Below are positions 18,001 to 24,000 of a DNA stretch of 64,000 nucleotides, piece by piece (the first letter of the stretch is position 1; each line of letters begins with the position of its first letter). The stretch is from an uncultured Parachlamydiaceae bacterium. Its GTDB lineage: Bacteria > Chlamydiota > Chlamydiia > Chlamydiales > Parachlamydiaceae. Position numbers: made by a program. The stretch is from assembly GCA_963752155.1 (NCBI GenBank), contig CAVVXH010000001.1, forward strand, positions 55,404 through 119,403, given 5' to 3'.

Positions 18001-21000
18001 CATCTCATATAGACCGAACACAATTTCCAAGCGCTCTTTAACGCTAGCTAAACGTTCTGGAAATGTTTCCTTATCTCTGATTCCATTTGAAAACATTCTG
18101 TAGCGCCTAAGATCCGAAAAAATGAGATGTAATTGAAAAGAGAGCTCATTTATAACTTCTTTCCCTTGACACGCTGTCGATTTTTTTTTCTTCTCTAAAT
18201 TTAGCAAGCCTGCTTTACAGGTAGTGATACGCCGATCGTTTGCCAGTTCTTTAAGAGTCCTGCTTAAGTCAACAAATTGTATATTTAATAAAGAAAGGTA
18301 AGGAACAATGATTTCCTTTTGCATCTTTTTTAATTCTTGAGTCGCTTTGAGAAGTGCGGGATTGTTGGTTGTTTTTGGTTGATCCGTGACAGTCGGTGTG
18401 GCTTCAGCTGGAGCAGGTTCTGTAGGTGTGAGCTCCCTTTGCTCTGGGATATAAGGTGTATAGAGATTAGAATATGAAGAAATTGGTTCCATTTATTACT
18501 CTTATGTTAAATGTAAATCTACATACTAATTTAAACTAAATAAAAATGCAATAAAAATGTAATTAGGAAATTTCAACGCAAAGCAAGACAGTTGCCTGTG
18601 GCGCCCCCTATTGGGAAATAACCAGTTGTTTGGGAGGTGAGAAAGATGCTGCGATATTAAGATATGAAGTATAGGAAAAAATTAAACGCAAAGGCACGAA
18701 GGCGCAAAGAGCACAAAGAGATCTTACGCGAAGAATTTTCATTTTTAAAAAAATAGGTGAATTTTATTTTACATGTAAGATCTCTTTGTGCTCTTTGCGC
18801 CTTCGTGCCTTTGCGTTTAATTTTTCTTAGTATTCCGCATCAGTCAATTTTGTTATTTAGGAGCGAGTCAGTTCTTGTGGCAAAAAGAACAGGAGACGCA
18901 GAAATATAGATTACTTTTATGCGAGGATTTAGTTTTTCAAAGGCTTCTTGAGTGATCAGTTTGAGCAGTAGGAAAGCTCTACTGCTAGCAATTTTTCCAT
19001 AGTATTTAAGTAATAAAGTCCTTGGTCTGTAATCTTTATACAACCTGTTAATTCAACGTATTCCAGGTTGTGTAAAGAAGCTAAATATTTAAGAGCTTCG
19101 TCCGTAATTTCGCAACGTTCCAGTAAAAGTTCTTTGAGCTCATGTAAAGAGGAAATAATTAAAATTCCACTATCACTTATGTGCGTAGCTCCTAAATCTA
19201 AGCGCACCAAATTTTTCATTGTGGCAATATATGGCATTCCTTCGTCTGTAATAAAACATGAAGCACCGAGATTGAGTGAATGAAGGTTTTCTAATTTAGC
19301 TAACTGTTCTAGATTGTGATTAAATACATAATCACATCCATTTAAATCTAAATCCACAAGCTTGCGAAGACGACACAAATTTTCAATGAATACATCATTA
19401 ACTTTACAATATGAAATAAGAGCCAAATAAGTGAGTTGTGAAAGATGCCAAACATGCTCCAATGCCTGCTCCGTAATATCAAAGCAGCAATCAATATGTA
19501 ATTTTAAAAGTTTCGGAAATAAATCAAGAAAAGCAAAAACTTCGTCACTCGGCATTTTAAATTTGATAGATTCCAAATTCGGACAATAAGTGGCTAAAAG
19601 ATGAAAATCTTCTGCAGATCTTTTTACCATCTCTTCATATTCTTGAGTTTCAAAACAAACTTCATAGGTCTGATATTCTTTGACAAACCGCTACTAAAAA
19701 TCTGTACAAATCTCATCATTACAGAGAAGAGCATCAGAACGCTAGCCAAGCAGTTTTGCTAACGATTCACGTATTGGAATCACACCAATATCAATCGGGA
19801 TTTCTTTGTCTCAAGAGTCGAGTTTATTGGACTCAAGGATCGATTTCTATCTATCGCCCGAATGTGTGCTGCAAGCACCGTTAATTTCTTTTTCACCTGC
19901 CCCCAGAAGTGCCATACATGTTTAGTTCGATTCCTCTCGGGTAGAACAAAAGTGACATGGCCTCCCTTACCGTCGGAAATTTTCCCTTCGGGAGAACAGG
20001 GTGCTTCAGAAAATTGTTGATAACGCCTTGCAATGCAAAGTGCAGCTGCAAGATGGACACTTAGACCATAACGCGTGGCATAGTTAATGCGGCCCATAAT
20101 AGATGTAAATGCCGGATTGACTTGATGGACTGTAATTCCATGTTTGTATGCTCGTGCCATGAGAAAAACAAAAAATAACCCATAGGCAAAACTAGATAAA
20201 AGGCGTGCCCACTTAGAATTTCCTTTTTCCGTCAAAACTGCCTTCTTTTTTTGGAAATCTAATTTCTCAATGACGATTGGTTTTTTTGTTTCTTTTGCTC
20301 TCTCAATAAGGCTCTTGCAAAGATCACCTGTAAGAGCTTTCAGCTGATTTTTGCTTCTCCCGTAGGAAACCCAAGAAAACGTTTTTCTTTTTACAGGATT
20401 GCCAAAGCGGTCTGTCTCCATATAGGCAATGTGATCTGTATTAAGGTCAATCCCAATAACTCCACGTTGCTCTTGTGAAACGGAAGCCACTTTTTTTAAG
20501 GCTGTTGAAACAAATACTCTCCAACCTTTTCTATCTTTTTTGAATCGGTAAGACAATGCTTGGCCCTCCGGATGATTGAGGCTTGCAAGGATGGCCTCAT
20601 GTCCATAAGCGAAGGCAACATTTTCAATCTCTAGATATTTTCCCCATTTTTCTTGCAAAGCTGTAGGTAAACGTAACCGCAAGCATAGGCTCCCATTTCT
20701 AATACTGGCAGTACATGTTTGATTGCCTGCCGTTTCGTCCTTTGATCCTAAAACAAAAAATTCACTGTTGCGTTTGGCTTCCCATTGCTCTTTCCATTCT
20801 TGATGTGAGGCAAAACCATTTTTTTCGAGATAAAATTGAGCGAGAAATAGTTTTTTACTTCCAAAACAAAGACGAACACGACCTTGCTTCCGATCTTCTT
20901 CTAAACAAGAAAGACGATGAGACAAGTTCTCTTTGCGTCGTTTTTTTTGATGGAGAACAAATTGTTTTGAAGTTTTTTTTTCTAAGCATTTAATGTTTTT

Positions 21001-24000
21001 CTCAAGAGTAGCGATTTGTTGTTTTAGACTTGCAATTGCTTGTTCTTGCCCGCTTTTGCAGGCAGATATTTTTCCCTCAAGGCTGACTCGACAAGCATTA
21101 AATTGCCTCGCTGTAATGCCATAAATTTTTAGAAAACTATTTTTACATGATGCTGAGGAGCTCTCTCCATTAGCTACTTTTGCATATAAAGAACGCTCCA
21201 CTTTACTCAGCAAATAAGCGCAACTTTGAAGAACTTCTTCTTGGTTTTCATTCAGCTGTAGACGAGTTTGATAGGTTAAAGTCATTTCATTTGTCATCGC
21301 CAATCAACACCTTTGCAGCATCTACAAGTTTTTTATTTTTTCTACTGCGACTACCGTACAAACGAGCAGAAAAAACAGTAATGATTTCTAGCACATCTTG
21401 TGCAAGCTCTTCTTCAAAAGAAGCTTCGTCGCCTTTGTTAATAATAACAACTTCAATTTGCTTTACCTCGCAAAGTGCAAAAATCAATTCTGCACCAAAA
21501 CGTAATAAACGATCCTTATGCGTTAATACTAGACGGGAGATTTTTTGCTCAAGAATCAAGTTGATGAGGGCCTTAAGACCCTTTTTTTGGTAATTCATTC
21601 CTGAACCTAAATCTTGAATAACTTGGAAATCCCATCCTTGTTTTACACAATAAGAAGTCAGAACATCCGCTTGTCTCTCGAGGTCTTTTTTTTGATCATG
21701 ACTTGAAACCCTTGCGTAAGCAACTGTTAAACCGTTATCAAAAACTTTCTTGCCTAATAATTTATCTAGATCATAATATCGTGTTTTTCCCTCCGATTTA
21801 CGATCGGGCATTAGATAGCCTGTCTTTTCCCAACGTCGAAGAGTTTGAATGCTGACCCCTAAAACTTTTGCGGCTTCGCCGACCTTGATAAATCTAGTCA
21901 TTTGATTAGATAGTATCAGATATGTATAGATTTATGCAAGCAGTTTCAAACCCTAAAAGATGTATCCATTTAGGGAGATCTTTATCGTGAGAGATTGTCA
22001 GCTCTTTGACTTTTTGAAGAACATATTTGACTTCTTCAGGGGTTAATTCCCGTAATTTCACCTCTTGAGAGAGTTCATCAACACTTTTCATTTATTCCTA
22101 TTGTTTAAGGGATGAGTTACAGGCCCCCTCGCTTTCTTCTATCGTCTTATATCTGCATCTTAAGAACTTAGAAAAGCAGTCGTATATTTTTGATCGATGA
22201 ACGGTTCTTTTGCTATACCCATATCATTTCCGGCATAACCCGGCAATTAAAAAATAAAAATATCATTAATTCCCGGCTTCGGTGGGAATTGGGTCAAAAA
22301 GCTTTGACAGTCCCTAAAAACCTTTATTAGACAATTTCTTTTTTTGTCCTTAAAGAATAATTTCTATATAGATTTTTTTTGAATTTTAAGGTATCAATCA
22401 AAATAGACAGCAATCCTTCTCATTTGCCGTGTTCGTGCCCGAAAAATAGTAATATTTACGAAAGTAATAAATAATATTTCTTTCTTAATATTTTTTTAGA
22501 GGGTATTGCGGGATAACTTGGGCACGTACACGCTATAAAAAAATAACGAGTGGAGGTCGCTATGGAGTACACTATCGGCATGATCGGCCTAGGAGTCATG
22601 GGACGCAACTTACTTCTAAACATGGCAGATAACGGATTTCATGTAGCTGGGTTCGATAAAGATCTTACCAAAGTTGAAGCTTTACTCCATGAATCGGAAG
22701 GAAATAAAGTTCATGGCGCCAAAACACTTCAAGAATTTTTGGACGTACTCCAGAAACCCAGAGCCATCATGCTCCTGATTCCGGCAGGCCCTCCCGTAGA
22801 TTCAGTCATCGACGAATTGATTCCATTATTGCAACCGGGGGATTTGATCATTGATGCAGGCAATTCTTACTATAAGGATACTATTATCCGCGCAAAGAAG
22901 TTAGCGGCTATTCAGATTGAATATTTTGGCATGGGAATTTCCGGAGGAGAAGAGGGTGCCAGAAAAGGGCCAAGTCTTATGCCAGGTGGCAACAAAAAAG
23001 ATTATGATCGTATCCAAAAAATCCTCGAAGCCGTCGCGGCTAAAGTCGATAACGAACCCTGTGTTGCCTATTTAGGACCCGGATCTGTAGGTCATTTTGT
23101 TAAAATGGTCCACAATGGGATCGAATATGGTATCATGCAATTAATTGCAGAAACATATGACTTGATGAAACGAGGTCTCCAGCTTGATGATGGTGCGCTT
23201 CATGAGATCTATAGATCCTGGAATAATAGTGAACTCAATAGTTATCTGCTCGAAATTACAGCAGGTATTTTTTGCAACACAGATAACAAAACAGGCAAAA
23301 ATTTGATCGATGAAATTCTCGATGTGGCTAAACAAAATGGCACAGGGAAGTGGACATCGCAAAATGGAATGGATATGCAAGTTCCTATGCCGACAATCGA
23401 TCTTGCAGTAGATATAAGAAATTTATCGATGCTGGAACAACAGCGTAAAGGGATACATGAACTCATTCATAGACCCATCCAGCCTTTTCGTGGAGATCCT
23501 CAACTCTTTTTGAAGCAATTGCAGAAAGCTTTTTATGTAAGTACGATCGTTACCTATGCACAAGGAATGGCACTCTTAAGTGCGGCCTCCCAAAAATTAA
23601 ACGCCAACTTAAATCTAGAGACGGTCGCACGCATCTGGCGCGGAGGATGTATCATTCGAGCTTCTTTGTTAGAAGATATTCGAAAGGCTTATAAAAAAGA
23701 TCCTCAACTCTCCAATCTTTTGTTAGATAAAGAACTTGCGAAAAGAGTGAATGACTCTCAAGAAGATTTAAGGCAAATAATTTCTTATGCAGCAAGCATG
23801 GGGATTCCAGTCTCTTGCTTAATGGCTTCCCTAAGCTACATCGATGCTTTTAGTAGCAGTTGGCTACCTGCAAACTTGATTCAGGCCCAACGAGATTTCT
23901 TTGGAGCGCATACCTATGAAAGAATAGACGCTAAAGGAACATTTCATACTAAGTGGGTAGAATGAAAAAGCAACTCAATACTGCGCTTGCATTTTATCAA

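Follow-up and report, generated by a model that had tools for sequence, protein, structure and literature searches.

A recently moved IS607-type element of a chlamydia-like genome with a TnpB assigned to clade RIIIr-4 and a predicted omega-RNA

A 2,266-bp IS607-type element that has moved recently was found in a 64,000-nucleotide stretch of DNA (the window) from an uncultured Parachlamydiaceae bacterium. We consider it about 75% probable that this is an autonomous IS607-family element of a chlamydia-like genome with a TnpB of the RIIIr-4 type, a predicted omega-RNA, an R-GG target and the mechanism proposed below. The TnpB branch concerned is large and already catalogued in print; its one assayed member gave no dsDNA cleavage in a TAM screen. 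With ends, insertion target and guide-RNA scaffold mapped, the window element is a clean test system.

Copies of the element and evidence of recent movement

Searching the window's own genome with the element's DNA returned six full copies with 99-100% identity and one decayed copy, the same set that the initial annotation had described. The full copies differed by about 30 single bases and three small indels in the copy alignment: 6 bp deleted in frame, 2 bp inserted in the C5 copy with a shift of its tnpB frame, and the last base absent from the C11 copy at a contig end. The tnpB frame was open in 5 of 7 copies. Flanks read from the copy alignments were unrelated, and in four public runs, from three studies, contigs diverged from the window sequence precisely at positions 19688 and 21953/21954, so the element limits and unrelated flanks proposed earlier were confirmed. 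Six copies of 99-100% identity at unrelated sites, the open tnpB frames and contig breaks at the exact ends showed that the element was mobile recently.

The TnpA protein scored far above the cut-off of NF033518, the IS607 transposase model (E 3.3e-64; 215.9 bits, cut-off 110), and matched the Pfam families Resolvase (E 1.6e-21) and MerR (E 3.4e-11), in agreement with the IS607-type serine recombinase already noted beside the tnpB-like gene. An IS607-type tnpA lay directly upstream in 66 of 80 related loci, which are kin and so not independent. No long terminal inverted repeats were present at the element ends, and no CRISPR array or Tn7 genes were found. The TnpA score, the GG at both ends without long inverted repeats or a CRISPR array, and the related loci together identified the element as IS607-type. 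In Rfam (E up to 1) the element had no relevant match, neither to a group I intron nor to a RAGATH-18-like RNA.

The genome also carried a 194-bp solo right end, which extends the earlier copy list.

Table 1. Positions of the element, its parts and its copies. Plain numbers count along the window; C numbers denote contigs of the same genome.
Feature	Position	Strand	Remarks
Whole IS607-type element	19688..21953	minus	2,266 bp, GG at each end included; limits common to six 99-100% copies and one decayed copy
Flank base -1	21954..21954	minus	A on element strand; with GG forms the R-GG target site, a candidate TAM
Left-end GG core dinucleotide	21952..21953	minus	GG at either end of every copy and of related elements; putative serine recombinase crossover site
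Left end, non-coding	21902..21951	minus	start GTTnnnAAC(T/A)GC, conserved in related elements
tnpA	21287..21901	minus	204 aa; MerR-type HTH and serine-recombinase catalytic domain (NF033518, Pfam)
tnpB-like gene	19780..21297	minus	505 aa from ATG (507 aa from TTG at 21303); overlaps tnpA end; D284, E344, H415, R424, R425, E431; no zinc finger
Predicted omega-RNA scaffold	19688..19881	minus	~194 nt; overlaps last 33 codons and stop of tnpB, ends at right-end GG; covariation
Hairpin H0 (GTGC / GCAC)	19866..19878	minus	99.3% of cells paired; both-side changes in 2/4 pairs
Long-range helix P1 (19857-19862 with 19794-19799)	19794..19862	minus	92.7% of cells paired; both-side changes in 6/6 pairs
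Hairpin P2	19772..19790	minus	tnpB stop codon (19780-19782) in loop; 98.0% of cells paired; both-side changes in 4/6 pairs
Hairpin P3	19740..19764	minus	conserved loop AAAACTGCTTG; 97.9% of cells paired; both-side changes in 5/7 pairs
Right-end terminus	19688..19701	minus	TTTTTAGTAGCGG, GG core 19688-19689 included; TTTTAG.A.CGG conserved
Putative guide	19668..19687	minus	~20 nt of flanking DNA read through; by analogy with IS607 TnpB systems (accessible parts of PMC10711439 and bioRxiv 10.1101/2023.11.20.567912)
Full copy (window copy)	C1:75091-77356
Full copy	C10:561442-563707
Full copy	C8:113447-115712
Full copy, at contig end	C11:326386-328650
Full copy	C10:542738-544997
Full copy	C5:101463-103730		tnpB frame shifted
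Decayed seventh copy	C10:402919-404917		93% identity; element positions 157-420 gone
Solo right end	C5:22115-22308		194 bp; 99% identity

Ends and insertion target

The element ran from GGGTTTGAAACTGCTTGCATAAATC, directly after the left flank, to GATTTTTAGTAGCGG, directly before the right flank. The role of GG in IS607 elements is described in the accessible parts of PMC10711439 and bioRxiv 10.1101/2023.11.20.567912. The 3' terminus TTTTAG.A.CGG was conserved across elements of Chlamydiota, Verrucomicrobia, Proteobacteria and Acidobacteria. Insertions were located at R-GG sites: of 48 distinct sites where the window element or its relatives had inserted, 47 had a purine at position -1 (A 25, G 22, C 1, T 0). 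In the seven copies the two bases preceding the left GG were TA, CG, GA (four copies) and TG, with A directly before the GG in five and G in two; the AG or CG that the initial annotation had given for six of six copies was not reproduced.

Fold of the TnpB-like protein

The TnpB-like protein matched TIGR01766 over residues 318-401 (E 4.2e-11; 43.2 bits, cut-off 32) and scored 52 bits (E 6.7e-14) against NF040570 guided_TnpB, under the cut-off of 100. The sole TnpB-related Pfam match was Cas12f1-like_TNB (E 0.048), and the best TnpB/Cas12 chain in a profile search was 8hr5_A (E 0.027). The family comprised 2949, 1883 and 712 representatives at E 1e-3, 1e-10 and 1e-30, respectively, the same counts as obtained before.

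The AlphaFold2 model (pLDDT 90.8) supports a Cas12f/Cas12k/TnpB fold, as proposed earlier. Its best Foldseek matches (E down to 5e-9) were Cas12k (E 5.3e-9), Cas12f and TnpB, and VIA-align superposed it on SpCas12f1 (Z 17.3, 322 aligned, rmsd 3.4) and ISDra2 TnpB (Z 16.5, 288 aligned, rmsd 4.0). The overall fold was shared with ISDra2 TnpB and Cas12f (8exa, 9i8y, 7wju) and the RuvC-I and RuvC-II residues aligned; however, sequence similarity to these proteins was near the detection limit, and in the model helices 63-106 and 109-137 form a long coiled-coil insert, a beta-hairpin and a long helix follow RuvC-III, and a zinc-finger (TNB) insert is absent. Residues 277-468 superposed on plain RuvC/YqgF domains (Thermus and Deinococcus RuvC; YqgF of Tex and Spt6) with Z 12.8-13.5 and rmsd 2.3-3.1, as expected of a RuvC domain that lacks the zinc-finger insert. 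Unlike the window protein with its predicted RNA guide, these plain RuvC/YqgF proteins are not RNA-guided and have no WED/REC part.

The altered RuvC site

Conservation was counted among the 150 best representatives, with denominators of 136-146 depending on position. D284 (RuvC-I) was kept in 145/146 and E344 (RuvC-II) in 140/142, followed by H415 (133/136), R424 (133/136) and E431 (126/136); none of 138 had a CxxC in the stretch from residue 395 to 431. These counts support a conserved His at the usual place of the RuvC-III Asp, then R424 and E431, with no CxxC zinc finger, and they bear out the H-x8-R-x6-E stretch reported previously in place of the finger and third Asp. An hhalign comparison with 10 canonical chlamydial TnpBs (probability 96.3, E 1.5e-9) matched D284 with the Asp of RuvC-I and E344 with the Glu of RuvC-II, leaving the four template cysteines in gaps. 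The helix LAAALCI fell on FNAAQNI, and H415 directly precedes this helix, where the template has Asp. The assignment of H415 to the third Asp place rests on this position next to the helix, since the program columns pair H415 with a His two residues before the template Asp, with a two-column gap after H415. E431 was not kept in the aligned actinobacterial (Streptomyces) relative, which rules it out as the third carboxylate of the clade as a whole.

We lean slightly towards a catalytically competent D284-E344-H415 site that would cut or nick DNA in circumstances which in vitro assays have yet to reproduce. In other RNase H-fold nucleases (Thermus RuvC, which uses His in its site, Cas9 RuvC and Argonaute DEDH) catalysis can go together with a His at a site of this kind, and hardly any members of the very large family of the window protein have lost D284 or E344. 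Both points argue against a TnpB that is dead for DNA cleavage, an RNA-guided binder which may still process its own RNA and would benefit the element without cutting both DNA strands; it may mark or shield the donor joint, or recruit TnpA or host repair. We regard such a protein as possible but rather unlikely, even though 133/136 representatives have His in place of the third carboxylate and the zinc finger is missing. One RIIIr-4 member has been assayed, ortholog 39 of Nocardiopsis dassonvillei (CP022434.1; PMC10278001, Supp. File S2): it had a clear omega-RNA 5' processing site and was scored N (no activity) in a cell-free dsDNA TAM screen, which favours the dead protein, and its authors, in the accessible part of PMC10278001, propose other substrates for such orthologs. 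However, one negative cell-free screen of one ortholog is weak evidence, and the omega-RNA processing itself speaks for activity, as the same 5' reaction in AmaTnpB needs the RuvC site according to the portion of the source available. Moreover, nuclease-dead relatives as described in the accessible text of PMC10691335 have lost several catalytic residues, and that paper reads the conserved change as retained activity and predicts RIIIr-4 to be active.

Probable membership in clade RIIIr-4

In its accessible text, the 2023 survey PMC10691335 defines the major TnpB clade RIIIr-4 by replacement of the RuvC-III Asp with His and absence of the C4 zinc finger, and names five other RuvC-III-altered branches. 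The window TnpB shows both traits, and like RIIIr-4 and ortholog 39 it falls among proteins of ~500-550 aa whose omega-RNA overlaps the gene 3' end and whose right end finishes ..AGGAACGG / ..AGTAGCGG. A homologous Streptomyces plasmid protein (E 1e-29, 26% identity, residues 14-445) provided a bridge: by eye it closely resembles the printed ortholog 39, and the stretch SRHDAA..GRR is common to it and the printed ortholog-39 RNA. Read as its reverse complement, the ortholog-39 primer ends CAGGAACGG(T), matching the right-end terminus of the window family. From the printed traits, this homology and the common terminus, we take the window TnpB to be a probable member of RIIIr-4.

It is very improbable, then, that the element typifies a large TnpB branch new to the literature, as the initial annotation had it ('type of a large, unstudied branch'). 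No Pfam model recognises the protein, its guided_TnpB score is under the cut-off, and many database members are nameless or called 'hypothetical protein' or 'transposase'; but the same two traits and an assayed member are in print, the Streptomyces alignment carries the ortholog-39 stretch, and NCBI annotation calls some relatives 'IS200/IS605 family accessory protein TnpB-related protein'. The window protein does differ from the actinobacterial relative in the identity of 26% and in a sub-branch with a near-invariant E431 seven residues after R424, and from ortholog 39 in that it resides in an autonomous, multi-copy IS607 element of a chlamydia-like genome.

Predicted omega-RNA and guide

Comparative alignment of 41 non-redundant right ends from several phyla shows that the last ~194 nt carry a conserved, strongly covarying RNA structure ending exactly at the right-end GG. 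Over 34 tested pairs, 86.3% were paired versus 72.7% in shuffles, with 227 versus 71 cells changed on both sides, and slid controls reached at most 43.5% paired. The four helices H0, P1, P2 and P3 were 93-99% paired with many compensatory changes, while two less well aligned hairpins enclosed by P1 (P1a and P1b) were only 74.6% and 58.6% paired. At the pairs of these four helices, G.U cells outnumbered A.C cells by 51 to 9, as would be expected of an RNA transcribed in the sense of tnpB. The solo right end starts at the same base as the predicted scaffold. The window scaffold alone folded no better than shuffles (z -0.38), just as found before, and its minimum-energy fold was without P2 or P3; the covarying helices nevertheless overturn the previous statement that there was no omega-RNA evidence.

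The 22-nt right flanks of seven right ends (C11 excluded, contig end) had no second full match in the genome. The putative flank-derived guide of each copy matched its own flank only, with no promoter match elsewhere in the genome, which argues against a domesticated, TldR-like RNA-guided repressor that merely adjoins a recombinase gene. An altered RuvC-III motif is known from some exapted TnpBs (PMC10691335, accessible text), and Cas12k, whose RuvC site is altered as in TldR, is among the best fold matches. Unlike Cas12k and TldR, the window gene lies inside a mobile, multi-copy element with defined ends, keeps its RuvC-I and RuvC-II residues and has guides that are flank-derived only; the transposase is kept in the related loci as counted above. 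We give a repressor of this kind hardly any credence.

Proposed mechanism and related IS607 systems

By analogy with known systems, in the autonomous RIIIr-4-type element that we favour excision and integration by TnpA would proceed through crossover at the GG. Transcription of tnpB would continue into the flank, and the transcript would be trimmed to an omega-RNA consisting of the scaffold and ~20 nt of flank guide. TnpB with this RNA would recognise the emptied donor site, R-GG and then the guide match, and its action there would lead to the element being kept or copied back.

As far as the accessible parts of PMC10711439 and bioRxiv 10.1101/2023.11.20.567912 describe them, ISXfa1 and the Clostridium botulinum IStron have the same arrangement, a serine-recombinase TnpA followed by tnpB with GG cores at both ends. 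Their TnpBs have a D-E-D triad and a zinc finger and cleave DNA, whereas the window TnpB has His as the third residue and no finger. Their target or TAM is G-rich and includes GG (GGG, TGGG), compared with R-GG here, and their guide RNA comes from the right end, where that of the window element is predicted.

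Organization, copies and ends of the IS607-type element
The element of the window consisted of tnpA and a TnpB-like gene, followed by a predicted guide-RNA scaffold at the gene's 3' end; the positions of these and neighbouring features were compiled in one table. TnpA carried an N-terminal MerR-type HTH and a resolvase (serine recombinase) catalytic domain (Pfam MerR and Resolvase), and matched the NCBIfam IS607 transposase model NF033518 at E 3.3e-64 (215.9 bits, cut-off 110).

Features of the IS607-type element and its surroundings (positions along the window)
Feature	Position	Strand	Remarks
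Whole element	19688-21953	(-)	2,266 bp, two overlapping genes
tnpA	21287-21901	(-)	204 aa
TnpB-like gene	19780-21297	(-)	505 aa; alternative TTG start at 21303
Predicted scaffold	about 19688-19881	(-)	covers last 33 tnpB codons; stop codon in P2 loop
AACTGCTTG word	21937-21945; 19747-19755	(-)	near left end; in P3 loop
Subterminal words	19703-19730; 21910-21935	(-)	AGATTTGT / AGATTTTT at right end; complement AAATCTATACATATCT at left end
Small ORF	21906-22091	(-)	61 aa
Leucine-rich-repeat (LRR) gene	18956-19630	(-)	
Inverted 16-mer pair	18687-18718; 18784-18815		CGCAAAGAGCACAAAGG and its complement

When the window's own genome (3.13 Mb, 22 contigs) was searched with the DNA of the element, six full copies at 99-100% identity were recovered, plus a decayed one that was 93% identical and had lost an internal part, the same count as in the initial annotation. 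Contig C5 also carried a solo right end of 194 bp (G000:C5:22115-22308, locus L008:1501-1694), which was missing from that earlier list. The element started with GGGTTTGAAACTGC and finished with TTTTTAGTAGCGG. GG was present at both ends in 7/7 copies and also in related elements. On either side, the flanks were unrelated among copies right from the first base beyond GG. Terminal inverted repeats were not reported for the element, and no long ones were present. The six full copies differed by about 30 single bases and by small indels, including a 6-bp in-frame deletion and, in the C5 copy, a 2-bp insertion that disrupted the tnpB frame; the copy on contig C11, which lies at the contig end, lacked its last base. 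The tnpB frame was open in five of the seven copies. The TnpA type, the GG cores and the multiple copies at unrelated sites indicate that the element belongs to the IS607 family, and the six copies at 99-100% identity at unrelated sites indicate that it moved recently.

Contigs from four public runs (three studies) diverged from the window precisely at positions 19688 and 21953/21954. No joint across the element, as expected for an empty site or a circle junction, was present in four DNA runs; assembled contigs drop rare forms, so that this blank is uninformative. Nor was any of the listed public runs recorded as RNA, a blank that is equally uninformative.

IS607 elements are described as being excised as circles and integrated by crossover between GG dinucleotides, and the target-adjacent motifs (TAMs) given for their TnpBs are G-rich and contain the GG, such as GGG and TGGG (PMC10711439; bioRxiv 10.1101/2023.11.20.567912). 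Among 48 distinct insertion sites in related elements and in the window's own genome, 47 had a purine before the GG (A 25, G 22, C 1, T 0), with no further strong base preference upstream of the GG across these 48 sites. The initial annotation had read AG or CG before GG in 6/6 copies; instead, the base before GG in the genome itself was A in 5/7 and G in 2/7.

Shorter relatives of 1.66-1.81 kb with identical ends and without tnpA were found at loci L016, L025 (genome G005) and L083-L087; these tnpB-only relatives are non-autonomous derivatives present in several copies. The AACTGCTTG word was present twice, and a CTGCT/CAGCT-like word was kept at both places in related elements; it may serve both for TnpA binding and, in the RNA, as a loop. 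The subterminal words AGATTTGT, AGATTTTT and AAATCTATACATATCT, likewise conserved among related elements, are probably bound by the recombinase.

Family, fold and active site of the TnpB-like protein
No Pfam model recognized the 505-aa protein, the best relevant match having an E of 0.048. The TnpB-related domain TIGR01766 was matched over residues 318-401 with 43.2 bits, above its cut-off of 32, whereas guided_TnpB (NF040570) stayed below threshold with E 6.7e-14 and 52 bits vs a cut-off of 100. Apart from the seven copies of the element, a search of the genome with NF040570 brought up no canonical TnpB; in a sample of 121 genomes of the phylum, 27 had one above the cut-off. An exhaustive search retrieved 2949 representatives at E 1e-3 and 712 at 1e-30, and the family size noted earlier was thus reproduced. 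A cluster look-up of ten proteins gave few names, 'hypothetical protein' and 'IS605 OrfB family transposase', and the collection did not contain the window protein. Relatives also occurred in phages (four Thermus records) and on plasmids (67 records, including Thermus, Streptomyces and Mycobacterium).

An AlphaFold2 model, for which 43 members of the family were used, reached a pLDDT of 90.8 and a pTM of 0.81. Its best solved matches in Foldseek were Cas12k, several Cas12f, ISFba1 and ISDra2 TnpB and Fanzor2, with E between 5e-9 and 6e-5 vs Cas12k, Cas12f and TnpB. VIA-align superposed it on SpCas12f1 over 322 residues (Z 17.3, rmsd 3.4) and on ISDra2 TnpB over 288 residues (Z 16.5, rmsd 4.0), indicating that the modelled protein has the WED-REC-RuvC fold of TnpB/Cas12f. 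The RuvC part alone (residues 277-468) could also be superposed, with Z 12.8-13.5, on plain RuvC and the Tex and Spt6 YqgF domains, in keeping with a RuvC domain that has no finger inserted. This part was as near to YqgF of Tex/Spt6 (Z ~13, at most 19-20% identity) as to RuvC. A sequence-profile search of the PDB gave weak matches (8hr5_A at E 0.027) amid coiled-coil noise.

The active site was checked by profile comparison with ten canonical TnpBs encoded by other members of the phylum (probability 96.3, E 1.5e-9). D284 aligned with the RuvC-I Asp and E344 with the RuvC-II Glu of the canonical proteins, and the four invariant cysteines of the template landed in gaps. The helix LAAALCI aligned with FNAAQNI; immediately before this helix, the template has its catalytic Asp and the protein of the element has H415. 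The alignment opened a two-column gap after H415 and placed it in the column of a template His two residues upstream; the equation of H415 with the RuvC-III Asp is therefore based on its position before the helix and not on alignment columns. Among the best 150 representatives, D284 was kept in 145/146, E344 in 140/142, H415 and R424 each in 133/136 and E431 in 126/136 of those covering the residue, and CxxC between residues 395 and 431 was found in 0/138 of those covering that stretch. The D-E-D triad was thus incomplete, with D284 and E344 present and His415 at the third place, and the C4 zinc finger between RuvC-II and RuvC-III was absent. Read from the sequence, these features show a His-type TnpB without a zinc finger.

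Probable placement in the RIIIr-4 clade
TnpB is divided into five major clades in PMC10691335. RIIIr-4, one of the five, is defined there by a change of the RuvC-III Asp to His and by a missing C4 zinc finger; the authors of PMC10691335 read its conservation as retained activity and report the clade in viruses too. Both traits had been noticed in the initial annotation and were borne out here, as RIIIr-4 is defined. Its proposal of an unstudied branch did not hold, since the clade is in print with both traits (PMC10691335) and one member has been assayed (PMC10278001). That study sampled 59 TnpB orthologs, and its Supp. File S2 labels ortholog 39, a protein of 529 aa from Nocardiopsis dassonvillei, as RIIIr-4. 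For ortholog 39, the sole RIIIr-4 member assayed, the file gives a scaffold of 466 nt, a clear site of omega-RNA processing and an 'N' for the cell-free dsDNA TAM screen. Full-text searches for RIIIr-4 or a His-type RuvC-III returned no biochemistry beyond this ortholog.

A 'transposase' of a Streptomyces plasmid served as a bridge. In BLASTP it aligned with residues 14-445 of the window protein (E 1e-29, 26% identity) and matched D284, E344, H415 and R424/R425; by eye, it was close in look to the printed ortholog 39. E431 had no counterpart in the Streptomyces protein, so that this residue is limited to a sub-branch and is no clade-wide feature. The reverse complement of the sequencing primer for ortholog 39 ended in CAGGAACGG(T), the terminus of the right ends in the element's family. 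Together with the two traits, the bridge from the Streptomyces protein to ortholog 39 and the common right-end terminus indirectly suggest that the window protein belongs to RIIIr-4. The element would then be a bacterial and evidently mobile member of this clade.

A predicted guide-RNA scaffold at the right end
Folding of the single sequence was uninformative (z = -0.38 for 194 nt), in line with the earlier observation that folding of the 3' end does not surpass that of shuffles, on which the initial annotation had based its statement of no omega-RNA evidence. That statement was overturned by a comparative alignment of 41 right ends, which revealed a covarying structure. We used 80 related loci from named genome records (12-sequence query) and loci from kin genomes. 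Most came from Chlamydiota MAGs, with others from Verrucomicrobia, Proteobacteria (Paraburkholderia, Limnohabitans) and one acidobacterium. An IS607-type tnpA lay directly upstream in 66 of the 80 loci, which are kin and hence non-independent. Across these phyla the right ends finished in a conserved TTTTAG.A.CGG. The 74 right ends were reduced to 45 that were under 93% alike and, after removal of one false end call and three near-duplicates, 41 were aligned.

RNAalifold predicted three helices in this alignment, with double changes in 15/19 pairs. When a fourth hairpin and two inner hairpins were added (34 pairs in total), 86.3% of the cells were paired vs 72.7% in shuffles, and both-side changes were seen in 227 cells vs 71 in shuffles; 0/500 shuffles reached the observed value, and slid controls were at most 43.5% paired. 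Pairing was 99.3, 92.7, 98.0 and 97.9% in helices H0, P1, P2 and P3 of the predicted scaffold, and 74.6 and 58.6% in the two inner helices, whose weaker pairing may reflect the alignment. At the H0, P1, P2 and P3 pairs there were 51 G.U cells vs 9 A.C cells, an excess consistent with an RNA made from the tnpB strand and not from the opposite strand. The covariation thus argues for a structured guide RNA at the 3' end of the gene that ends at the GG of the right end. When 19400-22300 was compared with Rfam at E <=1, the sole match was a chance one to a sarbecovirus UTR model (14.7 bits), with no group I intron and no known omega or reRNA family.

The solo right end on C5 began at the first base of H0, indicating that this piece is the predicted scaffold alone. 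It was 99% identical and intergenic, and it ended at GG; the 22 nt downstream of it had no other match in the genome. Such a piece could have been left by a deletion, or it could be a guide-RNA gene in its own right.

Flank-derived guides and the question of catalysis
By analogy with studied IS607 systems, TnpA would recombine at GG, and the tnpB transcript would extend into the flank to give an omega-RNA with the flank as guide. The TnpB-RNA complex would then recognize the emptied donor joint by R-GG (a purine, then GG) and a guide match, and its action on this joint would keep the element in place. The 22-nt right flanks of seven right ends (the C11 copy, at a contig end, was omitted) had no second full match in the genome. 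This pattern is consistent with homing on the element's own site over regulation elsewhere, and the reading as a trans-acting regulator was dropped because of it. TldR proteins, nuclease-dead repressors derived from TnpB, come from immobile single-copy genes with a guide that matches a host promoter, and have lost the RuvC site; this candidate was rejected, as the element is multi-copy, its predicted guides match their own flanks only, and D284 and E344 are kept.

We give a probability of roughly 55% to a catalytically competent D284-E344-H415 site. The near invariance of the three residues argues for competence, as does RNA processing by ortholog 39, a reaction for which AmaTnpB is reported to require its RuvC site. 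The dsDNA screen, however, gave a negative result for ortholog 39. A protein that binds DNA but is dead as a nuclease seems somewhat improbable. A further, rather unlikely reading is that the D-E-H site works but with another output than that of canonical TnpB: it would cut RNA, for instance when the omega-RNA matures, and would nick or bind dsDNA without a break. If this last reading were true, IS607 elements with a His-type TnpB would keep themselves without a double-strand break, and the present element, with its mapped ends, R-GG target and scaffold of ~194 nt, would be a test system for D-E-H chemistry within the TnpB/Cas12 superfamily.

The interest lies in the biochemical question and not in the kind of element: whether a His-type, finger-less RuvC cuts DNA or not bears on the evolution of Cas12-type enzymes and on compact genome-editing tools. 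For a bench test the element supplies exact ends, an R-GG motif drawn from 48 sites, the residues D284, E344, H415, R424/R425 and E431, and a covariation-supported predicted scaffold whose 3' end is defined and for whose 5' end the solo copy marks a candidate. New here, from sequence comparison, are the predicted scaffold architecture with its covariation, the conserved right-end terminus, the R-GG motif and the sub-branch limit of E431.

Neighbourhood of the window copy
The element was flanked by the small ORF and the LRR protein gene, and no CRISPR array was found in 17500-24000. The status of a type V CRISPR effector (Cas12f, Cas12k), beside which an array and, for Cas12k, Tn7 genes would be expected, was rejected, as no array adjoins the protein and its neighbours are tnpA, the small ORF and the LRR gene. 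A consensus scan for promoters and terminators returned fewer promoter-like sites than in shuffles and nothing usable.

The element sat within the small ORF at its 3' end and supplied, with its own left end, the final 15 codons of that ORF; it lay 58 nt upstream of the LRR gene on the same strand. By eye, the small ORF would extend by ~20 codons without the element and overlap the start of the LRR gene (ATGGTAA), suggesting that two coupled genes may have been separated by the insertion. The inverted 16-mer pair was observed on the downstream side of the LRR gene.
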